DNA from: Candidatus Latescibacterota bacterium | GTDB taxonomy: Bacteria; Latescibacterota; UBA2968; UBA8231 | Length of the DNA stretch: 64,000 bases | Direction of reading: 5' to 3' | Assembly: GCA_965221775.1 (NCBI GenBank) | Contig: CBDCSU010000006.1 | Location: 1,472,001 to 1,536,000 of the forward strand | Translations under genes and position numbers: made by a program | Part shown: positions 5,008-28,951 of the stretch, in pieces | Numbering within the stretch: position 1 is the stretch's first letter | How the letters are laid out: each line of letters starts with the position of its first letter | Notes under the pieces: generated by a model | What the model saw: the letters and a program-made list of their open reading frames with translations, nothing else | What the model was told of the DNA's origin: nothing | Databases searched by the model: none

Positions 5008-6726
5008 TCAGAGCCCGCGCAGGACGGCGATCCTGCCGGTGCGGCGGAAGGAGTCGCCCTCCAGGCGGTAGTAGTAGACGCCGGAGGCGAAGTCGCCGCC
5101 GACCTCCCAGGAGAGGGCGAGCCCCGGCAGGTGGTAGGTCCCGGCGGGCAGGCGCCGGTCGATGACGTGGACCAGGGCGCCGGCGGCGTCGAAAAGGCGC
5201 AGGGAGAGGCTCTCGGCCCCGGCGAGGTCGACGGGGAAGTGGACGGTGGGAGAGAGGCCGCGGGCGGGGTTGGGGAAGGGCGCGAAGGCGGCGCTGTCCA
5301 GCGGCCTCGGGGCCTTCAGGCCGCTGGCCCGGGCGGCGTCAACGCGCCCCCAGCCGTAGAGGGTGTCGGGTCCCGCCGGACCGAGGTCGACGGCGGTGGA
5401 GCGCAGGGCGGAGGCCACGTCCTCGGGGGTCCAGCGGGGGTGCTGCTGCAGCAGCAGGGCGCAGACGCCGGCGGCGATGGGGGCGGCGTAGGAGGTGCCC
5501 GAGACGAGGGAGTACTCGCGCAGCGAGAACGGTTCCGAGCCCTCGGCGGCGCCGCGGCCCGAGACGGTGTAGACCCCCTGCCCCGGGGCGACGACGTCGG
5601 GCTTGATGCGGCCGTCCGCCGTGGGGCCGCGGGAGCTGTAGGCGGCGATCTCCCCGCTTACGGGGTGCACCGAGCCGACGGCGATGACCCCGGGGGCGTC
5701 GGCGGGCACGGTGACGTAGCGCCAGTCGCCGAGGGCCTCGTTGCCGGCGGCGGCGACGACGACGATCCCGCGGGCCACGGCCAGCTCCGCGGCGCGGCTG
5801 GTGAGGGCGGTGGCCCCGTCCAGGTCTTCCCAGTCGTACCCGGTGCCGTCGTCGAAGCGGGTATAGCCGACCGAGGCGTTGACCACCCGGGCGCCGAGGC
5901 TGTCGGCCCACTCGATGGCGGCGACCCAGCGGTCCTCCTCGATGGGCAGCTCCCTCCCCACGCCGCCCTCGGAAGGCGTGACGTCCTCGGTCTTGGCCAG
6001 CAGGTACTCGGCGGCCGGCGCCACCCCGATCAGGCGGCCGGGGTCGTTGCCGGCGATCACCCCGAGGACACCGGTGCCGTGGATGTTCTGGCCATGGGCG
6101 GCTTCCTCCCCGGTGACCGGCTGCCCGGACTCGTCGCCGACCTCGTCGTCGCCGTTGATGAAGTCCCGGGCGGCGGCGACCCGCAGGCCGGCGAAGGCGG
6201 CGTGGGCCCTCCAGTTGAAACCGGCGTCGATGAGGGCGACGCGCACGCCCTCGCCGAGGAGGCCGCGGGCGTGGAGGAGGGGGACGTCGACGGCGGCCAC
6301 CTGCGCCAGGGAGGCGCCGTAGTCGAGGTCGGCCGGGCGCGGAGCGACGCGGCCGGGAGCAGGGTCGACGGGAAGGGCCGGGGAGGGCCGCCGCCAGCGG
6401 CGCACGGGGCGCACCTCGCGCACGAAGGAGAGGCGGCGAAGGCGGTCGGCCTGGCCGGGGCCGGCGTCGACGCTGACGGCGTTGAACCAGCGCGAGCGCG
6501 CACGGAGGCGGAGGCCGAGGGCCTCGACGGCGGCGGTGTAGCGGCGGTCGAGACCGGCGTCGAGGGCGGGGCCGGGGCGGACGCGGCGGGGCTCCGGCCA
6601 GGCGAGGGCCTCCCCCCGGTGCCCGGGCTTGTCGGCGAAGAACACCCAGAGGGGCTCGGCGGCGGCGAAGGCGGGAAGGAGGAGAGCGGCGCCCGCGGCC
6701 AGGAGGGACCGGCGGAGGATGGGCAT
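5008..6726 (-). CDS. Secreted S8 (subtilisin-like) serine peptidase with C-terminal sorting/FlgD-like domain
   Basis: Signal peptide; triad ALIDAG, HGTGV, SGTSYA; SSRGPTADGRIKPDV; tail PFPNP...SGVYYYRL. Confidence 0.9.
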   Translation of the reverse strand: MPILRRSLLAAGAALLLPAFAAAEPLWVFFADKPGHRGEALAWPEPRRVRPGPALDAGLDRRYTAAVEALGLRLRARSRWFNAVSVDAGPGQADRLRRLSFVREVRPVRRWRRPSPALPVDPAPGRVAPRPADLDYGASLAQVAAVDVPLLHARGLLGEGVRVALIDAGFNWRAHAAFAGLRVAAARDFINGDDEVGDESGQPVTGEEAAHGQNIHGTGVLGVIAGNDPGRLIGVAPAAEYLLAKTEDVTPSEGGVGRELPIEEDRWVAAIEWADSLGARVVNASVGYTRFDDGTGYDWEDLDGATALTSRAAELAVARGIVVVAAAGNEALGDWRYVTVPADAPGVIAVGSVHPVSGEIAAYSSRGPTADGRIKPDVVAPGQGVYTVSGRGAAEGSEPFSLREYSLVSGTSYAAPIAAGVCALLLQQHPRWTPEDVASALRSTAVDLGPAGPDTLYGWGRVDAARASGLKAPRPLDSAAFAPFPNPARGLSPTVHFPVDLAGAESLSLRLFDAAGALVHVIDRRLPAGTYHLPGLALSWEVGGDFASGVYYYRLEGDSFRRTGRIAVLRGL

Positions 6727-16417: not shown

Positions 16418-16870
16418 TCAGCGCGAAACGCGCGCCTGCCGCCGGGCACAGGCGCGCACGGCCTCCTCCTGGCCGGGGGTCTCCACCGACCCCGGGCGGC
16501 GGCGGCGGACCTCCTCCAGGGCGTCCTCGGGGTCGGTCCCGGTGGCCACGAGATAGCACGCGAGCATGGTACCCGTGCGCCCCAGCCCGGCCCGGCAGTG
16601 GACGGCGGCGGCCAGGCCGTCGCCCTCGGCGGCGTGGACGAACTCCAGGAAACGGTCGACCTGCCCGGGGCCCGGGACGGTCATGTCCCGCACCGGCAGG
16701 TGCAGATAGCGCAGGCCCCGCGACTCCGGCCACAGGCCCAGCTCGGTAAGGGAGACCAGGGCGCCCACGCCGGCGCCCTCCAGGGCGCGGAGATCAGCCC
16801 CCGTCAGCTCCCCCGAGAGGCCGAAGCCGGCCATGCGGCCGGGGCGGATCCAGCCGAAGTTGTGGATCAT
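16418..16870 (-). CDS. Dual-specificity protein phosphatase (Cys-based PTP family)
   Basis: HLPVRDMTVP, catalytic VHCRAGLGRTG, RPGSVETPGQ. Confidence 0.88.
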   Translation of the reverse strand: MIHNFGWIRPGRMAGFGLSGELTGADLRALEGAGVGALVSLTELGLWPESRGLRYLHLPVRDMTVPGPGQVDRFLEFVHAAEGDGLAAAVHCRAGLGRTGTMLACYLVATGTDPEDALEEVRRRRPGSVETPGQEEAVRACARRQARVSR

Positions 16871-17645: not shown

Positions 17646-19199
17646 CTACTGCAGGAGGGTCATCTTCTTCATGGAGGTGAAGGCCCCGGCGCGCAACTCA
17701 TAGTAGTAGACGCCGCTGCCTACCCTCACACCCCGCGAGTCCCGCCCGTCCCAGGTCTCGCGGTAGCTCCCGGCGGGCAAGGATGCCTCGGTGAGGGTGC
17801 GCACCCGCTGGCCGAGGCCGTCGTAGATGCGCAGGGTCACGAAGGAGCCCTCGGCGAGGTCGAAGCGGATGGTGGTGCCCGGGTTGAAGGGGTTGGGGTA
17901 GTTCTGCTCCAGGCCGCTGGCGAGCGGTACGACCTGCTCGCCGACAGCGGTGGCGAAGACGACCTCGATGGTCCCGGAGCGGCTGACGGCGCCGTTCAGA
18001 TCGATCTGCCGCAGGTAGTAGAAGACCACGTCCGCCGCGGGCGGATCGACATCGACGAACTCGTAGGTGCGGAACTCGTCGCTGGTGCCGGCGCCCGGAA
18101 CCAGGTCGCCCACGCGCTCGAAAGTCGCGCCGTCCACACTGCGGTAGACCTCCCAGCCGAGGTTGTTGGTCTGGGAGGCGACCCCCCAACGCAACAGAAT
18201 CTCGTCCTCGCCGGCGATCTCACCGGCAAAGCTGGCGAGCTCGGCAGGGACGGGAACGTCCCAGGTGACGCTGAAATCGACGCTCAGATCCCTCGACTCG
18301 CCACCGGTGTTGGGGGCGCTGGTGGCGGCCGAAACCATGGCGCTGGTGCTGCCGGCGGAGTCGTCGCCCTCGGCGTCGAGGGTGATGGAGGCGGACCCGG
18401 AGGCGTCGGTGTCCACGCTCACCTCCAGGCTCTCGCCGGCGGCCAGAGATCCCTCGCCCAGCACGTGGACGGTCTCGGAGCCGGAATTGCTCACGGTGAA
18501 GGTGACCGCCTGGCCCGCGGCGGCAGCCCCCGTGGCGTCGGCAAAGACGACGCCCAGGGTGACCTCGCCGAGGCTGCCGTCAGCGGCCGCGCCCATCCCC
18601 AGGGGCGAGTAGTCGGCGCTCACGTCGATGGCGGTGGAGGCGGTCAGGCTGGGCTCGGTGACCGGCGGAGGAGGCGGGTTGATCGTCACCGAGAGCCCGA
18701 GATCCTCGCCGGAGAACTCGTCGCGGTCCTCCCGGCTCGGGCCGACGGAGATCAGGGCGACGCTCAAGGATGCCTCCGTCTCGGCCGTGAAACTATCGGA
18801 GGTCTTCACCGAAAGGGTGATGGAAGCCTCGCCATCGACCTGATCCGGCGGCGTGACGGCGGCGGCCATGCGCACCTGGTTGTCGGTCCCCTCTTCCACC
18901 AGACCCGGTGTCAGCAGCGTCTGGACATCCTCGAAGCCGCCCCCAAGGGCGAGCCTGGCGGAGTTCAGATTGAAGTGGGCGGCGTCGGACACCTGCAGAA
19001 CAACCTCCAACTGCTTTACCCCGACGAGGCCCTCGGCCGCGACCTCCAGGCGGACCCTCTCATCCGCCCCCACACCGGCGACAGACATCTCGCCCACGAG
19101 GGTAAAGGCCGCGTTCTCGTTGTCCCCGGCGAGAACCCCGCCGGCCACGGCGAGGGAAAGGGCTACGGCGATCGGTGCTGCCTTGCGCAGAATCAGCAT
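17646..19199 (-). CDS. Secreted Ig-like protein with C-terminal PNPFNP/FlgD-type sorting domain
   Basis: Signal peptide; PAELASF...LLRW...NNLGWEVYRS; NYPNPFNPGTTIRF...WDGRD...SGVYYY...KKMTLLQ. Confidence 0.8.
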   Translation of the reverse strand: MLILRKAAPIAVALSLAVAGGVLAGDNENAAFTLVGEMSVAGVGADERVRLEVAAEGLVGVKQLEVVLQVSDAAHFNLNSARLALGGGFEDVQTLLTPGLVEEGTDNQVRMAAAVTPPDQVDGEASITLSVKTSDSFTAETEASLSVALISVGPSREDRDEFSGEDLGLSVTINPPPPPVTEPSLTASTAIDVSADYSPLGMGAAADGSLGEVTLGVVFADATGAAAAGQAVTFTVSNSGSETVHVLGEGSLAAGESLEVSVDTDASGSASITLDAEGDDSAGSTSAMVSAATSAPNTGGESRDLSVDFSVTWDVPVPAELASFAGEIAGEDEILLRWGVASQTNNLGWEVYRSVDGATFERVGDLVPGAGTSDEFRTYEFVDVDPPAADVVFYYLRQIDLNGAVSRSGTIEVVFATAVGEQVVPLASGLEQNYPNPFNPGTTIRFDLAEGSFVTLRIYDGLGQRVRTLTEASLPAGSYRETWDGRDSRGVRVGSGVYYYELRAGAFTSMKKMTLLQ

Positions 19200-19310: not shown

Positions 19311-22300
19311 CTACTTCAGGAGCAGCATCTTCTTGTGGCTCTGGAACTCCCCGCCCGCGGTGACGCGGTAGAAGTAGATTCCGGAGGACAAGGGCTGCCC
19401 ACTGTCGTTGGTGGCATCCCACTGGTAGCTGTAGCGGCCAGCGTTCTGGAACTCGCGGTCAACCATCGTCCGCACGACCTGGCCGAGCATGTTGAAGACC
19501 TCGAGGGTGACCTCGTTGGCGTCCGGCAACTGGTACTTGATCGTGGTCTCCGGGTTGAAGGGGTTCGGGAAGTTGTTCTCGAGGGCGTAGACCTCGGGAC
19601 GCGTCTCGACCCGAATCGCGACCGGATCGGTGATCCGGTTCAACCCGTAGCTGCCGTCCTGCACGCCGCCGGCCATGACCTCGACCAGGCTCTCCTCGAT
19701 CTCCTCGATGGACCGGAAGACCAGGGTGACGCCCAGATCGCCCTCGCTGACGGTCTCGCCGAAGGCGGCGATGTGGATCTCTCCGTCGGCGTTGGCGATG
19801 ACCCGCGGCTGAGCCAGACCAGCCTCACCCAGCGGGTTGTCCTCGAAGCGCGGCTCGACGAACTCGAGGTAGCGGTCGTCGAAGTTGACGGTGAACCCGT
19901 AACCCCGAACCTCGGCGAAGTCCTCCAGGCTGACCAGCAGGGACATCTCCTCGCCGACGCGCGGCAACTCACCCGCCGCGTTGTCGATGTAGAAGCGAGC
20001 CTCGCTGTTCAGACCGGCCTTCGTCGGCACCGCCTTGCCGATGCCCGCGACCTCCTTGCCGAAGCTCTCGGCGAAGGCGAAGAAGTCGTCGACATCGATG
20101 ACGTCGTTCGGAATGATGTCGAAGGCGGCCTCGTAGAGGTCGCTCTCGGCGGTCAGACCGAAGTGGTCGGCGAAGATGAAGAAGTCGTCGTAGTCGACGC
20201 GGTTGTCAGCGCCGAAGAGCCCGACGATCCGGTTGCCGTCGCCGTCGACGACGGTGTTGCGGATGGCCATGGCCGACTTCACGATCTCCGAGGCGGTGAT
20301 CTGCTCGAGATCCTTGGGCTCCACCTTGTAGGAGTAGCGCACGCCGTTGGCAGCGGTCAGATCCTCCCAGGAGGAAGAACCGGCCGGGGCTTCGCCCAAC
20401 AGCTGCCAGGCGCCGTCGCCGATGCGGCGGGAGATGTTGTAGCCCACCACGCCGGCACTGGTGAAGACATTGCCATTCGCACCGACCGCCTGCGGCACCA
20501 CCGAGGTCATCATGCGGTCATCGATCGACCTCGTCCAGTCGATGGTGATGCTGGCACCGGCGTCACCCGGAGTGTCCAGAGCGCGGACCCAGGTGACCGG
20601 GGCGGGCGGGATATCGTCGATGGCCCGCACGGCCTCCTCGGTACGGGTGATGTGGTCGTTCAACTCGCCCTGCACCGACTTCAGGCTCGGAACCAGGCCG
20701 CCGCGCTCGTGGAAGGCCAAGGCCTCCGGAGTCAGCGTGGCGAAGACCGGACCTTCCAGGTTGCCCTGGGCGGCCTCCCGGCTCCGGACCATCGTCTCGG
20801 CCATCAACTCGTAAGGCATGGAGACGGACTGGGTGACGGTGAAGGCACGCTTGTTGTCGGTGGCGGTGGTGTCCGTAGTGGTCTCCTCGCCGCCGTCCTC
20901 GGAGCCGTCGTCCTCCGTACCGTCGTCCCCGGAGCCGTCGTCCTCCGTACCGTCGTCTTCGGCACCGTCGTCCTCCATACCGTCATCTTCGGCGCCGTCA
21001 TCCTCCATACCGTCATCTTCGGCGCCGTCGTCCTCCATACCGTCGTCTTCCATACCGTCGTCTTCCATACCGTCGTCGGCCATTCCGTCATCGGCGCCGC
21101 CCGTACGGGTGGCATCGCTGGCGAGGCCCTGGCTCTCGGCGGTGACGCCATAGAAAGTGGCATCCCCGTCGAGGGTGGCGACTACGACGCGCATGACGTC
21201 AACACCGGGGATCGCGTCCACATGACCCCAAGCCACCGGCTGGATCGTGGGCTCGGACAACTCGACCACGTTACCCTCATCGTCAGTGCCCTGGGTGACG
21301 GTGACGTCACGCCAGATGCGGTAACCGCCGTCGAGGGTAGAGTGATTGTCGGAGAGGTCGAAGGTGAGCATGACGAACCCACCCTGGTCGCCCTGGCCGA
21401 GGGCGCCCTTGTAGTCCTCGCCGACCAACTTGTCGGGAGCGTCCGGACGGTGATCCTGCTGGTCCCCGTCATCAGTGCCGTCGTCGGTGGGGGTGACCAC
21501 CGCCGGCCGCTCGGTGACCGCCACCGTCTTGGTGGCCACCGTCACCGTTTCCCCGGTGACGTTACGAACGGTGAGTGGCAAATCTCCGAGGTGGGCGTTG
21601 CTCCGAATGGAGAAGGTGGCCACGCCGTTCTTGACCTGCAGAGCACCCGGGGGCAACTCGACCCCGATGACGGACGTGCTCACCTCGACATAGTTGTCCT
21701 GGTCGAGGACCGTGTTCCCGAAGGCGTCGACGTATCTCAAACCAACGTCGACCAGCGAGTGGAGATACACCGTATCGCTGACGGAGATCGTGATCTCCTT
21801 GTAGGCCGCATGCTTGATGACGAGAGAGGAGTCCAGCTTGCCGACGAAGGTAGTGTCGCTGTCGCTGGTGAGATCCTCCACCTTGACCGTGTGGGTCTCC
21901 GGAGCCTTCTGGGCGTTCAGCTTCACGTCGGCCTTCCAGGAAACCACATCCCCGACCCTGCCGACGCCCCAGGCATCGCTCGTGAGCCTGGCCATACCGG
22001 CGGGCATGCCCTCGGTGACCACGCCCTTGCCGGAGAGGGTCAGGCCATCGCCGGAACCGCCGGAGACGGTCACCACGGCATCGTTGTTGTAATCGACCTT
22101 GCCGTAGGCGAGAGCGGCCACATTCGCCTTGTTCCACGCGTTCACCGTGAGGGTGAACTGGGGATCCTTGTGGGCCGCCACCTGCCCGCTATTCGCGAGC
22201 TTGCCCTTGTCGTCGGTTCTCGTCCCTCCGGGGGGATTCGACGAAACGCTGAAGTAGGTGATCTTCGGCACCACGTAGTTGGTGTCGTAGGTCAGCTCGC

Positions 22301-24380
22301 CAGCGTCGGTGACCTTGTAGTTACCAGCGAGGTCGGCGCCGATGAGCGTCAACTTGTACTTGGTGTCGTCAACCAGACCGGTGTCCTTCCTGGCGGCGTT
22401 GATGAACTCCTCGTGCGGGATGACCTGCTCCTCCAGGTCCAGAAGCTCGCCGCCGGCCAGATCCCTGATCTTCTGTCCGGGCCTGTCCCGTCCGCTCACA
22501 TACTCGTAGATGATGCGGACGCTGTCGGCGTGCTCACTGAGCGCGAACCTGACGTCGGCGGTGCTGGTCTCCTCGATCGTGGAGATGTCGGCCGAGGTCG
22601 GGAAGAGGCCGTTGAAGGCGAGATCGTCGATATCGACATAGACGTCGGCGCGCTCGGCGGCCGGACCCTTGTTGCCGGCAAAGTCGGTGCCGGTGACCTT
22701 GATCGTCTTGACGCCGGTCTTGAGGACGCCCACCCCGTTGGTGTCGTGCTTGGTACGGGTGGTCAGGTCGGGAGTGGTCTCGATCGAGCTGACTCGACCC
22801 GCGGCATCAACATCGAAGATGAGGCGGAGCTTGCCCGCGGCGTTCAGCGCGGCATTGTTGTCCGAGAAGGCGCGGATCGTATCCGCCGCAGTCGGCACAT
22901 CGTCATCATTCCCGGGGACCTCGTCAGGGCCAGCGCCACTTGTCTCGATGACGGTGGGGGGGTCGGCGTCTGAGAGTCCCCACTTCCGAACGTCGTCGCC
23001 TTTGTTCCTGATCTTGAGGACGGTGCCGCCGAGGTCGATGTCCAGATCCTTGTACTTCTCCCCGGCGAACAGGGCATACTGGATGGGATTGAGATCGTTG
23101 GAGGTGCCCGAATTCAGAGTGCCGTCAGTAACGGTGTCTGGGCTCGCCACCTCGAGAGTGTCACTGCCGTCCTTGCCGCTGACGCCATCGATGACCGGCT
23201 TCTTGCTGTCAATGAGGAACGACAGACTAGCCGAGGCGCCGGCCGGGTCCCCGGACGGCGTGGCGCCACTTCGGTTACCCCACTCGTCGACGATGTAGGC
23301 CGTGGCCCTGTTTCTGGCTACGGGCGCTGCGCCCACGGTCTGGACTGTCACCTTCTCACCCACAAGGTCGCCGAACTCGCCCTCGCCGATGGCCTGCCGG
23401 AAGGTGAGGGTGTCGAGCCGGCCATTGCTCTCAAGGGGGACCGAGTAGGTCTCCTTCACCTTGCCGGCGCTTGTCTCCGGGGCTGACGCGTCAGTCAGGT
23501 CGAAGACCTCGACCTCGACGGTATGGTTCTTGTCGAGGATCAGCGGCATGTTGTCCGGCCCCACCTTGACATCGAATTCGAACTTGTCCCCGATGCCGGC
23601 GATGTCGGCCCTTACGTCGTCTGCTGCATCGGTATTGCCCTGGGTCAGCACGGCCGTGACCAAGTCGCCCGAGACCCCATCCCCCCCATGGAGGATCAAG
23701 GCCGCAGGGACCGGAGGACGGTCGGCGTCGATGGCGAAGAGCACGTTGCCCGGGGTGGTCGGGGACCTCTTGCCGGTGCCGGCCGTAACTGTGGCGCCGC
23801 CGCCGCTCGTCACTTCGTCCCACGCCACCGCCACGGCATGGATGCTCGACACCATGCCGCTGGTCTGGTGGACCTTGCCGTTCCAAGTGTAGGTGACCTC
23901 GGCGACGTTGGCGTCGACCTGGACCGACGTGGCATCGCCGGCGAAATAACGCGTCGAGTCGGTGTTGCCGTTGGACTTCTGGATCCGAACGGCAACGATG
24001 CCGGCCCCGGCGACAGCATCGACGGGCTGTCTCTCCAACGCAGCATCGCCCGTCAAGCCCAGACCGCCGTTGAAGTCCCCGGCCGCCGGCTCCACTGCAG
24101 GCACTCGCGCCTCAGGGCTATCCTTCACCTTGCCACCACCTGTAGCCTCATCGCCCAGAATCAGATCTCCCATGACCAAGGCGATGGCCACGCCGTCCGC
24201 ATCGTTGGGCGTGAAGTCCCTGACCACCGCCGTCACCGTGAAGGTGCCGTCGATGCCGAGGGTGGCTCCCGAGTCGGGCGCGGTGATGGTCACGCTGCGC
24301 ACCTCCGCCGCGTGGGCGTCGATGGCCCCGAAGCCGATCACCAGCGCGGCGAAAAGGGCTGCGTAATTCCTGCGCTGCAT
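19311..24380 (-). CDS. Very large secreted surface protein (Ig-like repeats, acidic linker, dockerin/EF-hand-like pair, cohesin-like domain, PNPFNP C-terminal domain)
   Basis: GAGGAGG RBS, signal MQRRNYAALFAALVIGFGAIDAHA; DNRVDYDDFFIFADHFG...DVIDVDDFFAFAESFG; NFPNPFNPETTIKY...SGIYFYRV...KKMLLLK. Confidence 0.8.
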   Translation of the reverse strand: MQRRNYAALFAALVIGFGAIDAHAAEVRSVTITAPDSGATLGIDGTFTVTAVVRDFTPNDADGVAIALVMGDLILGDEATGGGKVKDSPEARVPAVEPAAGDFNGGLGLTGDAALERQPVDAVAGAGIVAVRIQKSNGNTDSTRYFAGDATSVQVDANVAEVTYTWNGKVHQTSGMVSSIHAVAVAWDEVTSGGGATVTAGTGKRSPTTPGNVLFAIDADRPPVPAALILHGGDGVSGDLVTAVLTQGNTDAADDVRADIAGIGDKFEFDVKVGPDNMPLILDKNHTVEVEVFDLTDASAPETSAGKVKETYSVPLESNGRLDTLTFRQAIGEGEFGDLVGEKVTVQTVGAAPVARNRATAYIVDEWGNRSGATPSGDPAGASASLSFLIDSKKPVIDGVSGKDGSDTLEVASPDTVTDGTLNSGTSNDLNPIQYALFAGEKYKDLDIDLGGTVLKIRNKGDDVRKWGLSDADPPTVIETSGAGPDEVPGNDDDVPTAADTIRAFSDNNAALNAAGKLRLIFDVDAAGRVSSIETTPDLTTRTKHDTNGVGVLKTGVKTIKVTGTDFAGNKGPAAERADVYVDIDDLAFNGLFPTSADISTIEETSTADVRFALSEHADSVRIIYEYVSGRDRPGQKIRDLAGGELLDLEEQVIPHEEFINAARKDTGLVDDTKYKLTLIGADLAGNYKVTDAGELTYDTNYVVPKITYFSVSSNPPGGTRTDDKGKLANSGQVAAHKDPQFTLTVNAWNKANVAALAYGKVDYNNDAVVTVSGGSGDGLTLSGKGVVTEGMPAGMARLTSDAWGVGRVGDVVSWKADVKLNAQKAPETHTVKVEDLTSDSDTTFVGKLDSSLVIKHAAYKEITISVSDTVYLHSLVDVGLRYVDAFGNTVLDQDNYVEVSTSVIGVELPPGALQVKNGVATFSIRSNAHLGDLPLTVRNVTGETVTVATKTVAVTERPAVVTPTDDGTDDGDQQDHRPDAPDKLVGEDYKGALGQGDQGGFVMLTFDLSDNHSTLDGGYRIWRDVTVTQGTDDEGNVVELSEPTIQPVAWGHVDAIPGVDVMRVVVATLDGDATFYGVTAESQGLASDATRTGGADDGMADDGMEDDGMEDDGMEDDGAEDDGMEDDGAEDDGMEDDGAEDDGTEDDGSGDDGTEDDGSEDGGEETTTDTTATDNKRAFTVTQSVSMPYELMAETMVRSREAAQGNLEGPVFATLTPEALAFHERGGLVPSLKSVQGELNDHITRTEEAVRAIDDIPPAPVTWVRALDTPGDAGASITIDWTRSIDDRMMTSVVPQAVGANGNVFTSAGVVGYNISRRIGDGAWQLLGEAPAGSSSWEDLTAANGVRYSYKVEPKDLEQITASEIVKSAMAIRNTVVDGDGNRIVGLFGADNRVDYDDFFIFADHFGLTAESDLYEAAFDIIPNDVIDVDDFFAFAESFGKEVAGIGKAVPTKAGLNSEARFYIDNAAGELPRVGEEMSLLVSLEDFAEVRGYGFTVNFDDRYLEFVEPRFEDNPLGEAGLAQPRVIANADGEIHIAAFGETVSEGDLGVTLVFRSIEEIEESLVEVMAGGVQDGSYGLNRITDPVAIRVETRPEVYALENNFPNPFNPETTIKYQLPDANEVTLEVFNMLGQVVRTMVDREFQNAGRYSYQWDATNDSGQPLSSGIYFYRVTAGGEFQSHKKMLLLK
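20892..21095 (-). repeat. 15-bp coding tandem repeat (13 x DDG[M/A/T/S][E/A/G])
   Basis: Units such as CCGTCGTCCTCCATA repeated on the + strand. Confidence 0.9.
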
Positions 24381-24468
24381 CTTCTTCCTCCTCAGGGAGC
24401 CCAGTCCCTGTCCTGGTTTCTGCAGAAAAGTTCTGATGTAATGCGGGGATTCAGTGAGTATTCGCTCC

Positions 24469-24498
24469 ATAATATCACCGGCTCCTATGGGGTGTCAA
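24469..24498 (-). promoter_or_regulatory. Near-consensus sigma70 promoter of the large surface-protein gene
   Basis: TTGACA-18 nt-TATTAT with an extended TGn before the -10. Confidence 0.7.
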
Positions 24499-24565: not shown

Positions 24566-27115
24566 TCAACCCCCATCCCCACTTCGGAACCGGTGCCGCC
24601 GCAGGGCCAGGGCCGCCCCCGCCAGGACGACAGCGGCGCTGGCGGCGCCGGCGGCGCGGGCCCGGGCCACGGGCGGGGAGCGGTAACGCAGCTCCACCAT
24701 GTGCTCGCCCGCCGGCACGGGGACCGCCTTCCAGACGTAGTCGGCGCGCAACAGGGGGGCGGGCCGGCCGTCGACGAGGGCGCGCCAGTGGGGGTGGTAG
24801 TTGTCGCCGATCACCAGCAGGCGGGGCCCGCCGGCGGACAGGTTGAGACGCACCACGCCCTCGCGGTAGTCGTAGAACTCCTCGGTCACGCGATCGCCGC
24901 CCAGATCGGCGTCCGGGCCGGGCAGGTCGATGGGCGGCGGCTCCTCCAGCAATACGGTGCGGCGCAGGTCGTAGCGCCCCTCGCGCAGGGCGGTGAGGAC
25001 CTCCGCCTCGCCGGGCAGGACCTCGGCGTGGGGCGCCAGGTGGAACCACGGCAACGCCGTCCGGTTGGCGTAGAGGCGCAGCTCGCGCCCCGCGAATACC
25101 TCGGGGAAGCCCTCGGCCCGCAGCTCGACGGAGCGCGGCGTGACGAGGAAGCGGGCGCCCATGAGATCGAGGATCGGGCGCGCGGCGCCGAGGATCTGGC
25201 CGTCGGTCCAGCGCACGTCGCGGCCCTCGGCGTGGCGGGCGCGCAGCACGCTCTCCACGGGCTCCAGCTCTCTCAGCAGGCGGTCGTAGCGGCGCAGGGT
25301 GAAGTTGGCGAAGCCGGTGGCCACGTCGGCGCCGTCGAGGTGGTAGCGCGCGTCCTTGAGGAAGCCGTGGCCCGGCACGGGGAAGAGGCGGAAGCGGCCG
25401 GGCTGCCGCTCGAGGAAGGCGCGCACGTCGGGGTTGGCCTGGCGGTAGTCGGCGTAGTCATCCGGGTCTTCGTACTTGAGGAAGAGGCGGTCGATGCGCC
25501 AGGTGTCGGCCACGGTGAGGGCGGCCAGGCCGAGGACGAGGAGGCCGGCGCCGACGCGGTTGCGCAGATGCAGCAGCAGCAGGGCGGTGCCGGCGGCGCA
25601 CACGCCGGCGCCGATGAGGCCCCCGCGGGCGAGCCAGGGGGCGGCGGCGGTCATGGCGCGGCGGCGGAACTCCGGGGCGTCGGACCAGAGGAGGGCGGTC
25701 CATGCCTCGGTGACCAGGCGCGGCGCGAGAGCGATGACGAGGCAGAGGCCGGTGAGGACGGCGCCAGCGACGAGGATGCGGCGCGAGAGGACGGGCGCGT
25801 CGCCGGCGGGGCGCAGGACGCGGCTGAGGCCGAGGGCGGCGAGGGCGACGGCGGGAAAGGCGAAGAGGAAGGCGGCCATGCCGATGGTGCGCAGCTCCTT
25901 GCCGCCGGGCAGGAGGTGGTAGGCGACATAGTGGACGGGGGTGTGGCCGCCGAGGGTGAAGGCGGCGGCGGCGGCGAAGAGGAGGCCGAGGAAGAGCACG
26001 AGGGGGCTGGCGCGGGCGCCGGGGACCGCGGCGAGGGCGAGGAGGAGGACGAGGATGCCGAAGTACTCGGAGTTGAGCTTCATGGGGTTGCGGCCCCAGT
26101 AGCGGTTCCGCTTGTCGGTGGGGTCGTCGAAGCCGCCGAACTCCGGCACGACGAGGGAGGCGATCTCCTCCGGGTGGAGGGACCAGCTGCGGGCGTGGGC
26201 GAGTTGCTCCCCGGGCGTGCGGCCGGTGCCGTCGTGGACGGCGGCGCGCTTGGACTCGGTCTTGACGTGCAGGTAGGGCGGGTAGACGCCTTCGGCGGCG
26301 AGGCCGAGACCGAGGGCGGCGGCGGCGGCGAAGAGGCCGGCGCGCTCCGCCAGGCGGGGGAAGGTCAGTCCCCGCAGGCGCAGGTGGACGAGCTTATAGA
26401 TGGTATAGGCGCCGGTGCCCAGGAGGGCGTACTGCATCATCTGCAAGTGGGGGGTGAAGATGCCGATGGCGATGAGGACGGGGAGGGCGGCCCACGAGCC
26501 GAGGGCCTGCCGGCCGCCGTCCATGCCGCGCTCGACGCAGAGGAGGAGGAAGGGGAAGAGGGCGATGACCGACATCTTGGCGTAGTGGCCGGCGAACGGG
26601 AAGCTGAGGAAGGTGGGCGCCGAGAGGAAGGCGAGGCCGCCCCAGAGGGCGGCCCAGCGATGGACGCCGACCTGCCGCAGGTAGAGGAACATGCCGTAGC
26701 CGGCGGCGAAGACGACGAGGATGTAGCGCCAGCCGACGGTGCGCTGGTGGGTGGTGAACAGCTCGATGAGGTAGGTGGGGAAGAACTTGTGGCGGATCTC
26801 CTCGGAGACGGGGTAGCCGCCCATGATGGGCGACCAGGCCGGGGGCACGAGGTCGCGCAGCTTCTCCGCCACCGGCGCCTTGCCGCGGTGGAAGTCGAGC
26901 CCCACGTCGTGGCCGAAGATGATCTTGCCGCTGAGAGGGAACTCCCAGAAGTAGACGAGGGCCACCAGCGCGAAGAGGGCGGGGGCGAACCAGGGGCGGG
27001 AGATGTACCGCCGGAAGGCGGGGGCGGGGGGGGCTTCAGGCGAGGCGGGGGCCTCGGCCTTCGGCCGGGGGTCCGCCTTGCGGCGTTGGTCGCGCCTGCG
27101 GTCCTGCTTGCCCAT
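24566..27115 (-). CDS. YfhO-family polytopic membrane glycosyltransferase (GT-C fold)
   Basis: About 13 TM segments; WSPIMGGYP, SWSLHPEE, YFG motif; C-terminal LVIGDNYHPHWRALVDG...AVPVPAGEHMVELRY. Confidence 0.8.
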   Translation of the reverse strand: MGKQDRRRDQRRKADPRPKAEAPASPEAPPAPAFRRYISRPWFAPALFALVALVYFWEFPLSGKIIFGHDVGLDFHRGKAPVAEKLRDLVPPAWSPIMGGYPVSEEIRHKFFPTYLIELFTTHQRTVGWRYILVVFAAGYGMFLYLRQVGVHRWAALWGGLAFLSAPTFLSFPFAGHYAKMSVIALFPFLLLCVERGMDGGRQALGSWAALPVLIAIGIFTPHLQMMQYALLGTGAYTIYKLVHLRLRGLTFPRLAERAGLFAAAAALGLGLAAEGVYPPYLHVKTESKRAAVHDGTGRTPGEQLAHARSWSLHPEEIASLVVPEFGGFDDPTDKRNRYWGRNPMKLNSEYFGILVLLLALAAVPGARASPLVLFLGLLFAAAAAFTLGGHTPVHYVAYHLLPGGKELRTIGMAAFLFAFPAVALAALGLSRVLRPAGDAPVLSRRILVAGAVLTGLCLVIALAPRLVTEAWTALLWSDAPEFRRRAMTAAAPWLARGGLIGAGVCAAGTALLLLHLRNRVGAGLLVLGLAALTVADTWRIDRLFLKYEDPDDYADYRQANPDVRAFLERQPGRFRLFPVPGHGFLKDARYHLDGADVATGFANFTLRRYDRLLRELEPVESVLRARHAEGRDVRWTDGQILGAARPILDLMGARFLVTPRSVELRAEGFPEVFAGRELRLYANRTALPWFHLAPHAEVLPGEAEVLTALREGRYDLRRTVLLEEPPPIDLPGPDADLGGDRVTEEFYDYREGVVRLNLSAGGPRLLVIGDNYHPHWRALVDGRPAPLLRADYVWKAVPVPAGEHMVELRYRSPPVARARAAGAASAAVVLAGAALALRRHRFRSGDGG

Positions 27116-27222
27116 GGTGTGGCCTGTTCCAGTCGGGGGGCGGCCCGGGAGACGCGGGAACTACTGTATTGGCAGGGCGGCCAGAGGGCCCGGGTGGTTC
27201 CCGGAGGCGCCGGAACCTGGCC

Positions 27223-27426
27223 TCATGGGGCGGCGGGGTCGTCCTCCACATCCGGGAACGGTGGGTTCACCCCCTGCCGCCGCGCCCAAGCGTTGGCCTC
27301 CCGGCAGGCCTTCAGCCGGCCCTCCTCAAAGCCCTTCTCAAGGCCTTCCTGGCGGCCTTCCTGGCGCGCCTTTTCGTGCTGGCGCGCCAGCCGGTCCTTC
27401 ATCCATTGCGTCATGACCCCGGTCAT
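27223..27426 (-). CDS. Short EGxE-repeat protein (copy A, tail only)
   Basis: AGGAG-5 nt-ATG; MTGVMTQWMKDRLARQHEKARQEGRQEGLEKGFEEGRLKACREANAWARRQGVNPPFPDVEDDPAAP. Confidence 0.65.
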   Translation of the reverse strand: MTGVMTQWMKDRLARQHEKARQEGRQEGLEKGFEEGRLKACREANAWARRQGVNPPFPDVEDDPAAP

Positions 27427-27530
27427 GTCCACTCCTGAAGGATGGCAGACGGCTGCTCAGAAAGCTCCATGGTCGATGATACTCCCGGGGCTTCCTTCCC
27501 GGGGCGGTCCCGAAGCGCCGGAACATGGCC

Positions 27531-27746
27531 TCATGGGGCGGCGGGGTCGTCCTCCACATCCGGGAACGGTGGGTTCACCCCCTGCCGCCGCGCCCAGGCG
27601 TTGGCCTCCCGGCAGGCCTTCAGCCGGCCCTCCTCAAGGCCCTTCTCAAGGCCTTCCTGGCGGCCCTCCTCAAGGCCTTCCTGGCGCGCCTCTTCGTGCT
27701 GGCGCGCCAGCCGGTCCTTCATCCACTGAGTCATGACCCCGGTCAT
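27531..27746 (-). CDS. Short EGxE-repeat protein (copy B, tail only)
   Basis: AAGGAG-5 nt-ATG; same sequence as copy A with one more 4-aa unit. Confidence 0.65.
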   Translation of the reverse strand: MTGVMTQWMKDRLARQHEEARQEGLEEGRQEGLEKGLEEGRLKACREANAWARRQGVNPPFPDVEDDPAAP

Positions 27747-27810
27747 GTCCACTCCTTGGACCCGCTTGTCCTACAGATGATACTCCCGGGCCGCGCGAGA
27801 TACCGCGCTG

Positions 27811-28299
27811 CTACCGGCTGGCGGCAGGGTCGTCCTCCACATCCGGGAACGGTGGGTTCAGCCCCTGCTTCCTCGCCCAAGCGTTGGCCTCCCTGCAGGC
27901 CTTCAGCCGGCCCTCTTCGCGACCCTCTTCGCGGCCCTCTTCGCGACCCTCTTCGCGGCCCTCTTCGCGACCCTCCTCACGGCCTTCCCGCAGGGCCTGC
28001 TGCCGCGCCTCTTCGTGCTGGCGCGCCAGCCGGTCCTTCATCCACTGAGTCATTACGCCGGTCATGTCCACTCCTTGGAGGATGGCAAAAGGTATGCAGA
28101 CGGCTGCGATGACGACCTCCCCCAGACCTCGCATGATACCCAGAGAGGTATCAACAAGACCCTTCCCCCCAGTGACCTCCGACCAAACTACAAGACCAGA
28201 CCCGTAGAGGGCGATGGCCAGGAATCCGGTCACGAACCAGACCCGCTTGTCCTCGACGATCGACCATATCCCGACTCTTGCCCCGGATTCCGGCTCCAT
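27811..28299 (-). CDS. Membrane protein (2 TM) with internal RBS/ATG and EGREEG-repeat tail (copy C, full length)
   Basis: TMs WFVTGFLAIALYGSGLVVW and VVIAAVCIPFAIL, then QGVDMTGVMTQWMKDRL...REG(REEG)x6 RLK; internal AAGGAG before ATG at 28065. Confidence 0.75.
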   Translation of the reverse strand: MEPESGARVGIWSIVEDKRVWFVTGFLAIALYGSGLVVWSEVTGGKGLVDTSLGIMRGLGEVVIAAVCIPFAILQGVDMTGVMTQWMKDRLARQHEEARQQALREGREEGREEGREEGREEGREEGREEGRLKACREANAWARKQGLNPPFPDVEDDPAASR

Positions 28300-28357
28300 T
28301 CAGAAGCTCCATGGTCGATGATACTCCCGGGGCTTCCTGCCCGCAATGAATGACCGC

Positions 28358-28951
28358 TTACAGGGTGCCCTTGGTGGAGGGCACGCCGGAGACGCGGTCG
28401 GAGCGCAGGGTGGCCATGTCGAGGGCGCGGCCCAGGGCCTTGAAGATCGCCTCGATGCCGTGGTGGTCGTCGGCGCCGCGGAGCAGGTCGACGTGCAGGT
28501 TCAGGCGCCCGTGGTCGGTGAAGGCGCGCAGGAACTCGGGGACGAGGGCCACGGGCAGGCCGCCCACGGAGCCGTCGCGGAAGGCGGCGTTGACGGCCAG
28601 GTAGGAGCGTCCGGAGAGGTCGACCACAGCCCGGGCGAGGGCGTCGTCCATGGGGACGTAGGCGTGGCCGAAGCGCTGGATGCCGGCCTTGTCGCCGAGA
28701 GCCTCGCCCAGGGCTTGGCCGAGGCAGATGCCGACGTCCTCGACGCTGTGGTGGGCGTCGACGTCGAGATCGCCGCGGCAGGTGAGGGTGAGGTCGAAGA
28801 GGCCGTGGCGGGTGAAGGCGTGGAGCATGTGGTCGAAGAAGCCGACGCCGGTGCTGGCCTCGCAGCGGCCGGTGCCGTCGAGGACGAGGGTGAGGTCGAT
28901 CTCGGTCTCGGAGGTGCGTCGCTCGACGCGGGCGCGGCGGGCGCCGCTCAC
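28358..28951 (-). CDS. hisB: Imidazoleglycerol-phosphate dehydratase
   Basis: RRTSETEI...TGVGFFDHML...DAHHSVEDVGI...PMDDAL...DDHHGIEAIFKA...PSTKGTL. Confidence 0.96.
   Translation of the reverse strand: MSGARRARVERRTSETEIDLTLVLDGTGRCEASTGVGFFDHMLHAFTRHGLFDLTLTCRGDLDVDAHHSVEDVGICLGQALGEALGDKAGIQRFGHAYVPMDDALARAVVDLSGRSYLAVNAAFRDGSVGGLPVALVPEFLRAFTDHGRLNLHVDLLRGADDHHGIEAIFKALGRALDMATLRSDRVSGVPSTKGTL

Follow-up and report, generated by a model that had tools for sequence, protein, structure and literature searches.

Long and tail-only members of an uncharacterised two-helix membrane protein family share an Rpn-like layout in a Candidatus Latescibacterota genome

We analysed a stretch of 64,000 nucleotides (nt) from a Candidatus Latescibacterota bacterium (contig CBDCSU010000006.1; hereafter the window), in which three related genes, in the order C-B-A, follow hisB. 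The locus comprises one long and two short members of a widespread, uncharacterised family of small inner-membrane proteins. The long member, C, has two transmembrane (TM) helices (TM1 and TM2) and a tail of four-residue repeats with one glycine each, written GX3 here; B and A encode the tail without the TM part, and these short copies are very probably real genes that have been under selection. Judged by its sequence, the locus is Rpn-like in layout but is not a member of the Rpn family. We propose, with confidence a little short of even, that the short tails act as a restraint on the membrane form by pairing with its GX3 helix.

The long gene C and its tail-only copies

The sequence-only reading of this DNA had described C as a two-TM protein of 162 amino acids (aa) whose gene contains AAGGAG, a 5-nt spacer and an ATG at 28065; these coordinates were confirmed, the genes being on the minus strand (Table 1). 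Hydropathy windows place the hydrophobic segments at residues ~20-40 and ~51-77, separated by a short loop, and the N-terminus carries an IWSIVE motif ahead of TM1. An AlphaFold2 model of C, built on a 44-sequence alignment, has a predicted local distance difference test score (pLDDT) of 88.7 and helices at residues 16-43 and 48-144; in the model, TM2 and the tail are a single continuous helix, and the final ~18 residues are disordered. The repeats had been read as EGxE; the four-residue period stands, and the unit is better named GX3 (E-G-R/L-x), with Gly at each fourth residue. Tandem Repeats Finder (TRF) assigns the array in C a period of 24 nt, with 3.2 copies and 96% matches. After the array the tail closes with a conserved NAWAR-x-QG-x-N-PPFPD peptide and, beyond it, an acidic, disordered terminus.

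The tail proteins of B and A are 88% and 87% identical to that of C; at the nucleotide level A is 96% identical to B over 162 nt and 74% identical to C. Sequence and alignments bear out the earlier description of both copies as keeping the upstream motif, the Shine-Dalgarno (SD) sequence, the ATG and an intact tail while lacking the TM part. A 15-nt motif, CCCGGGAGTATCATC on the coding strand, occurs three times with 100% identity (27475-27489, 27776-27790 and 28317-28331). The internal start of C consists of AAGGAG at 28071-28076, a 5-nt spacer and ATG at 28063-28065; the SD of B is likewise AAGGAG (27752-27757), and A has the SD-like sequence CAGGAG (27432-27437). Between motif and SD, B retains a relic at 27759-27772 that is an exact 14-nt match to N-terminal coding sequence of C (28240-28253), and A retains one at 27438-27456 that matches the TM2-coding sequence of C (28089-28107) at 84% over 19 nt. 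A also keeps 40 nt of the region upstream of C at 98% identity. Because the retained pieces are colinear with C, A and B need two deletions each, and the deletion sites differ, as had been claimed. No further copy or fragment was found within the window by tblastn or by blastn with a word size of 7. A public contig of 2,595,205 bp carries called genes for exactly the A and B proteins. That the triplication is an assembly artefact is very unlikely, because the copies differ, A and B are called on the public contig, and two other genomes have related arrangements.

These genomes came from a single genome scan with the patterns GVMTQWM and VGIWSIVE, which matched 41 stretches, of which two were confirmed: two Candidatus Latescibacterota chromosomes, L001 and L002, both with hisB upstream of the locus and the same YfhO-like membrane protein gene downstream. 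In L001 a tail-only copy directly after hisB is followed by a 57-nt duplicate and then by a full-length gene whose product is 88% identical to C. The duplicate (5891-5947 against 6592-6648, 81% identity) derives from the start of the downstream YfhO-like gene, which argues that the array grew by tandem duplication of the unit together with its downstream junction. The L001 tail-only copy begins at the second Met, the first ATG and the upstream element having been lost. The L002 locus consists of one tail-only gene, in which a deletion joins the upstream CCATGGAG straight to TGGACATG, so that the upstream element and GGAG of the long gene now serve the tail. There are thus four tail-only derivatives with four differing junctions at one syntenic site in three genomes, in line with the earlier suggestion that the TM part was removed independently. 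Read as DNA, each of the four still has an SD-like sequence, a start codon and an uninterrupted tail frame, and none of the four partial copies is a TM-only fragment. These junctions support an origin of the tail-only copies through independent deletions.

The repeats themselves are homogenised within each genome: the window has (REEG)n, encoded by alternating GGT-CGC and GGC-CGC units, whereas L001 (~6300-6390) has (RQEG)n. This points to recent, independent slippage or conversion.

The ratio of non-synonymous to synonymous substitution rates (dN/dS) was computed over the 41 alignable anchor codons of the tails. Twelve pairs, either both from the window or one from the window and one from another locus, gave 0.09-0.20; with the wide occurrence of tails as called genes, this agrees with the earlier view that the copies look selected rather than decayed. 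The short copies of the window compared with that of L002 gave 0.13-0.16 on 9.5-11.5 synonymous changes, and the L001 long gene and the L002 tail differ by eight synonymous and no non-synonymous changes. The long gene and tail-only copy of L001 gave 0.53, on three changes in all, and A and B differ in their anchor codons by three synonymous changes and one non-synonymous change, too few for a test. These comparisons indicate that the tail codons are under purifying selection, a constraint that holds for the tail and not strictly for tail-only lineages, because the compared paths mix long and short ancestry.

The upstream element of C begins 11 nt past the hisB stop codon and contains TTGCGG (28341-28346), a 17-nt spacer and TATCAT (28318-28323), followed by CCATGGAG, which gives GGAG 7 nt ahead of the C ATG. 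TTGCGG-17 nt-TATCAT is present in the three copies that come after hisB or the duplicated junction. The element of C is 95.6% identical over 45 nt to those of L002 and A, compared with 72-78% in the coding parts. TATCAT had been called -10-like; the conservation of the element stands, and a promoter role may be suggested for it, but a scan for consensus promoters did not recover the site. A further TATCAT, which lies inside C and 63 nt ahead of its internal ATG, was dropped as a promoter candidate, L001 lacking it. An Rfam scan of 26900-28600 gave no match at E<=1. In copy A, a relic of C's upstream ATGGAGC opens an upstream ORF (uORF; ORF, open reading frame) of 15 codons, MELSEQPSAILQEWT (27424-27471, minus strand), whose TGA overlaps the tail ATG (ATGA), an arrangement that permits termination-reinitiation coupling; B has no such uORF, and in C the equivalent ATG begins another frame, a longer one.

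Two codons, CAA and GGA, make up the internal SD of C, and both are rare in this genome: in four flanking genes CAA accounts for 4 of 27 Gln codons and GGA for 2 of 166 Gly codons, and within C for 1 of 6 and 2 of 21, respectively. L001 retains this CAA GGA though adjacent synonymous sites have changed. We consider that the internal start in C is probably used, although not with high confidence.

Codon usage at the locus is atypical more generally. The G+C content of third codon positions (GC3) is 0.68 in the TM part of C, 0.80 in its tail, 0.85 in B and 0.84 in A, and 0.63 and 0.80 in the TM part and tail of the L001 gene (6001-6489), against about 0.95-0.98 in the flanking genes of the window and L001. 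Since the anomaly has been kept across a synonymous divergence (dS) of ~0.5, it suggests constraint and not merely recent import; behind it may lie selection for weak expression of the long form, or some feature of the RNA or of a promoter. Foreign origin could be an alternative cause of the codon usage in C.

Long and short forms across the family

A word-seeded search with C, in which 7,999 candidates were scored, returned 446 proteins at E<=0.01, of which the best 120 were examined as a list. Among the matches listed are 11 close full-length clusters, with 62-86% identity to C, and many distant full-length proteins of the same layout at about 25-40% identity. A phmmer search of all 1.84 billion representatives returned 523 matches at E<=0.001, including 14 at E<=1e-10, all of which are full-length or tail-only forms; one full-length relative, P0012, matches residues 2-145 of C with E=5.2e-18. 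In a 44-member alignment headed by C, an N-terminal (R)ESIWS motif precedes the two TM helices; TM2 closes with a Met, and the GX3 repeats come after it. What we call the 2TM-GX3-tail family is defined by these features, with (R)E/G-S/I-I-W-S as the general form of the motif, together with a conserved W/A-rich helix and a P-F-x-E/D-P-P end; C has all of them. The tail ends in W-x-A-W-N-x-RR...G-x-PFDEPPP across the wider family and in NAWARxQG-x-PPFPD in the Latescibacterota branch. Two distant two-TM proteins, P0014 and P0157, instead end in ...KRGI-x-L-S/T-x-x-DEDAL after the repeats; these ends loosely recall the RG-x-x-x-E-E-I turn of RpnS-like tails, which offers a thin lead to a link between the tail types.

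The nearest ESM Atlas clusters (0.94) are unnamed and commonest in Chloroflexota, and the few named records of the family are from metagenome-assembled genomes of Chloroflexota and Ca. Poribacteria. None of the curated libraries searched (Pfam, NCBIfam, PADLOC and PHROGs) holds the family. The sequence-only reading had left the N-terminus to be compared with TM families; for C, Pfam gave just a sub-threshold Yae1_N match, NCBIfam sub-threshold, repeat-driven matches and PADLOC none. In a Foldseek comparison of the C model with the PDB, none of the 290 matches at E<=10 reached E<=0.001, and these were generic helical hairpins; a tail profile searched against PDB sequences had a best match of E 2.7, to an unrelated protein. 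Literature searches on the tail and repeat sequences, and on intragenic antitoxins combined with transmembrane, found no paper on the family.

Short forms, too, are widespread. With B as the query, 35 proteins among 85 candidates matched at E<=0.001; 34 of them start with MTG[V/L]MTQWMK, and the remaining one is an Rpn-type tail. The 30 intact short clusters differ down to 65% identity and share 19 invariant columns. The distance from Met1 to NAWAR is a multiple of four in 27 of the 30 intact tail-only proteins, with a range of 32-52; it is 60 in C (from the internal Met), 48 in B and 44 in A. One contig of 2,684,416 bp holds one long and two short clusters (P0008, P0144 and P0147).

The same pattern is found in the distant branch. 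The tail of a distant member, P0016, gave 259 matches at E<=0.001 when searched against proteins of fewer than 90 aa (3,803 candidates). In a sample of 119 listed matches of the 259, plus P0042, a TM-like window is absent from 115 of the 120 short proteins, most of which begin M-[VLI]-x-A..., a sequence equivalent to the end of TM2 in long forms. Short forms other than P0325, which starts inside the repeats, were anchored by their first 10 residues on 64 long proteins of the distant branch. Thirty of these long proteins had an anchor score >=35; the position that aligns with the short Met1 holds M in 23 of them, V in six and F in one, compared with a background Met frequency of 193 in 10,934 residues (1.8%). 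The occurrence of M or V, and not L or I, is the pattern expected of a start codon (ATG or GTG), and we regard it as a lead. One distant subfamily includes a long protein of 194 aa (P0427) and a short one of 78 aa (P0345), each on a contig of 78,971 bp and differing in repeat number, and pairs of short proteins one repeat apart occur on contigs of 22,083 bp (P0307 and P0337) and 6,654 bp (P0379 and P0405). Several short tails (P0123, P0381, P0385 and P0406) carry the Joint Genome Institute (JGI) label 'flagellar biosynthesis/type III secretory pathway protein FliH', which, given the far sub-threshold scores of the FliH models, is a repeat-driven misannotation. Together these searches carry the long-and-short pattern beyond a single locus to a large family that lacks annotation.

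Likeness to Rpn and a proposed pairing of tails

Intragenic antitoxins were described in 2023 for one type of effector, the Rpn nucleases. PMC10400941 reports that RpnS is made from an internal start in the Rpn gene; that its first, dimerising helix has four-residue repeats, which begin 8-20 residues past the Met and vary in number within species; that stand-alone RpnS copies downstream of rpnC and rpnE had independent origins by duplication; that RpnL is blocked solely by RpnS of equal repeat number; and that toxicity, neutralisation and phage defence have been demonstrated. Set beside that account, the locus described here is similar in several ways. As with RpnL and RpnS, the tail of C corresponds to the short protein and has an SD and ATG inside the long gene, translation from which is a candidate here. 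As in Rpn, a variable number of 4-aa (12-nt) repeats lies in a long helix soon after the short-form Met, beginning ~22 residues after Met79 in C compared with the 8-20 given for RpnS; the Rpn-style variation that had been proposed is seen in the four-residue steps of tail length. Stand-alone short copies also lie beside the long gene, as they do in the Rpn account, and have repeatedly been born by tandem duplication (C-B-A in the window, short-long in L001).

Unlike Rpn, however, C has a two-TM hairpin as its N-terminal domain and not a PD-(D/E)XK nuclease, and unlike the RpnS/DUF4351 bundle, its tail lacks helices 2-3 and ends in a Pro-rich peptide. Neither PF14261 nor PF27070 matched C, B or A at E<=10. 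TIGR01784 matched B with E=0.0043 and 16.9 bits (cut-off 52.1) over model positions 209-247, which cover the repeat zone only, and left C unmatched. The near-identical repeats (EGR-x-EG) do align the tails with 14 RpnS-like proteins at a probability of 97.7% and E=1.7e-12 over 59 columns (hhalign), a likeness that is repeat-based; without the repeats the probabilities were 3.2% and 0.5%. This masked comparison lacks power, because a control of close and distant tails that are known to be related also gave 2.4%. The comparison with RpnS envisaged by the sequence-only reading detected no RpnS/DUF4351 homology outside the repeats. Membership of Rpn fails because there is no nuclease domain, there is no DUF4351 and the likeness is confined to the repeats; the repeat helix may or may not share an origin with that of Rpn.

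GxxxG or deca-GX3 helical repeats are described for FliH/YscL and Yae1/Lto1 (PMC2674601 and PMC4523923), and the tails are like these proteins in having Gly at each fourth residue of a charged helix; their best library matches are found there (FliH, E=1.4e-08). Unlike FliH/YscL, however, they reach only 34.6 bits with the model NF004270, whose cut-off is 180, and over model positions 38-99 only, and neither a FliH C-terminal domain in the tails nor flagellar or type III secretion genes among the neighbours scanned were found. Nor are they Yae1_N (PF09811) proteins: this was the sole Pfam match at E<=10, at 19.8, 23.2 and 20.2 bits, all under the gathering threshold of 27.5. Small membrane toxins, abortive-infection effectors with two TM helices and dual-start class II holins are likewise small two-TM proteins with a charged cytoplasmic C-terminus, and in such toxins and holins a second product of the same gene could oppose the first. 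The second product here differs from theirs in lacking the membrane part entirely, and the locus lies in neither a defence island nor a lysis cassette; searches of Pfam, PADLOC and PHROGs and with Foldseek linked C to membrane toxins or holins neither by sequence nor by fold.

In our reading the long form C is a helical hairpin consisting of the N-terminal IWS motif, TM1, a short outer loop and TM2, with TM2 continuing unbroken as a cytoplasmic helix of ~70 residues that carries a variable number of GX3 repeats. The tail would also be produced as a separate soluble protein from the SD and ATG inside the long gene, and stand-alone tail genes, as the DNA shows, arise by tandem duplication followed by deletions of TM-coding sequence that spare the upstream element, SD, ATG and tail. 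GxxxG and GX3 repeats mediate helix-helix pairing, and a short form may pair with the tail helix of a long one via the face that presents Gly at every fourth residue. The number of repeats might then set the register or specificity of long-short pairing, and pairing could cap or titrate the membrane form, restraining its assembly or activity. On the individual steps, we regard binding of the short form to the long form as an even call. A complex prediction for C with B scored 0.30 against a mark of 0.32; it was run without controls and is used neither way. We think it rather unlikely that the long form does harm or serves as a defence effector. We are similarly doubtful of the more specific idea that the two-TM family, with named records in Latescibacterota, Chloroflexota and Ca. 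Poribacteria, is a membrane-effector counterpart of Rpn, in which the gene for a harmful or defence-active long form would also supply the antidote through an internal start, long-short specificity would depend on hypervariable GX3 repeats, and arrayed stand-alone tails would be spare or cross-reactive antidotes.

Several observations weigh against the proposed pairing and restraint. Under the equal-repeat rule of Rpn, A and B (44 and 48) would not match C (60). The exact 162-aa C protein and its internal-start product are absent from the protein collection searched, and the scan for consensus promoters and terminators returned 0 and 0 sites. The pattern scan found no second locus in the L002 chromosome, and an orphan short form there fits an autonomous function of the tail equally with an orphan antitoxin. 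The neighbourhood is one of housekeeping genes, and the 18 ORFs scanned include neither mobile nor defence genes. NCBIfam matches to FliH models reach at most 34.6 bits against cut-offs of 148.9-293 and are repeat-driven, PHROGs gave weak, sub-threshold, repeat-driven matches, PADLOC gave no family for C, and tblastn of C found no relative in 50,697 phage and 72,556 plasmid records. Over all 64 anchors the residue opposite the short Met1 is M in 35, V in eight, T in six, L in four, I in three and others in eight; low-score anchors are frequently misplaced in this set. Some of the 'short' database proteins could be long genes called from an internal start. Decay also occurs both ways: four of the 34 short clusters (P0137, P0145, P0153 and P0154) look frameshifted or truncated, and P0010, one of the 11 long clusters, retains the TM part and has lost the tail end.

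Several of these points would be expected if the tail were the working unit, a soluble helical adaptor that binds a conserved partner by its C-terminal peptide, with the long form as a membrane-tethered isoform, nothing toxic, and the copies serving dosage or diversification. We regard this as a serious possibility, though not a probable one. Outside the tail start, conservation is highest in the C-terminal peptide, short forms are plentiful (the 259 distant matches, and 34 close clusters against at least 11 long ones), and L002 has just the short gene; the housekeeping context with its stable synteny in three genomes and the lack of matches to defence or toxin families in PADLOC, PHROGs and NCBIfam are also as an adaptor would have it. 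Such an adaptor has no known partner, and it leaves unexplained why the atypical codon usage of the TM part has been kept in two species and why the TM part, and not the tail, was lost in all four partial copies. It is improbable that A and B are instead non-functional leftovers of duplication and deletion in an unstable repeat locus, with frames intact through youth. Their 96% identity does imply that they are recent, with too few changes between them for a test of selection; damage in four of 34 short clusters, and the L001 copy that lost its first ATG and upstream element and has a dN/dS of 0.53 on three changes, would also suit leftovers. Against this, each of the four independent junctions spares SD, start and frame, dN/dS between the short copies of the window and of L002 is low (0.13-0.16), and the 30 intact short clusters combine divergence to 65% identity with 19 invariant columns and length steps of 4 aa. 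The same pattern recurs in a branch that is only ~30% identical, and the 45-nt upstream element (95.6%) is more conserved than the coding sequence (72-78%).

We think it more improbable still that C derives from a phage, as a holin-like or other lysis or pore protein, with the short forms regulating its timing. The architecture resembles that of class II holins, the codon usage looks foreign and the distant member P0016 matches the holin family phrog_20 with E=0.052. C itself, however, has no holin match in Pfam or PHROGs and none in phage genomes by tblastn, no endolysin or prophage gene lies among the neighbours scanned, the Foldseek comparison with the PDB left 0 of 290 matches at E<=0.001, and the tail of ~85 residues far exceeds a holin C-terminus.

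Returning to the proposed pairing of short tails with the long form, what may be new here is an Rpn-like gene-within-gene logic attached to a membrane N-terminal domain. If this holds, a gene-within-gene antitoxin with specificity set by dodecamer repeats would be a portable module for unrelated effector domains, and its design would be a general one, spread over several little-studied phyla, rather than peculiar to Rpn. The helix with Gly at every fourth residue would be a candidate programmable dimerisation 'ruler', and hundreds of small ORFs that are now hypothetical or mislabelled as FliH would gain a testable role. Repeat expansion and the birth of short copies would then not require an Rpn nuclease, contrary to a possibility discussed in PMC10400941; the locus bears on this point because 12-nt repeat expansion and downstream short copies arise in it without a nuclease domain. 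Even on a modest interpretation, it is a clean natural example of a membrane gene that has repeatedly been turned into a gene for a soluble tail under selection.

Coordinates and neighbouring genes

Table 1. Features at the locus, with positions counted from the first nucleotide of the window.
Feature	Position	Strand	Basis
hisB (imidazoleglycerol-phosphate dehydratase), upstream neighbour	28358..28948	(-)	Pfam IGPD E=3.6e-64
Conserved element upstream of C	28300..28357	(-)	sequence, alignment
Copy C, full-length 162-aa gene	27811..28299	(-)	ORF
Candidate internal start of C at the TM2/tail boundary, Met79	28063..28076	(-)	sequence
12/24-nt tandem array encoding the (REEG)n GX3 repeats of C	27908..27984	(-)	TRF
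Copy B, tail-only, 71 aa (ATG 27744-27746, ORF end 27531)	27531..27746	(-)	sequence
Upstream element of A, includes the motif at 27475-27489	27457..27501	(-)	sequence
Copy A, tail-only, 67 aa (ATG 27424-27426, ORF end 27223)	27223..27426	(-)	sequence
849-aa polytopic membrane protein, weakly YfhO-like, downstream neighbour	24566..27115	(-)	Pfam YfhO E=2.5e-05

Farther upstream, hisD and hisG are co-directional with hisB (Pfam Histidinol_dh E=1e-153 and HisG E=1.1e-42), and the YfhO match of the 849-aa downstream neighbour is at 23.3 bits, under the Pfam cut-off of 28.5. The neighbourhood contains the his operon, TsaD, MoaD/E, IMPDH, transporters and surface proteins sorted by the type IX secretion system (T9SS). 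Beyond the downstream neighbour, two large proteins with FlgD-Ig domains are encoded at 17646-19199 and 19311-24470, both on the minus strand; the larger, of 1,719 aa, has a Por_Secre_tail (T9SS) sorting domain. At 16418-16870, also on the minus strand, lies a gene for a 150-aa dual-specificity phosphatase of the 'Swiss Army Knife / polymorphic toxin' protein tyrosine phosphatase (PTP) type (PF22784, E=1.1e-23).

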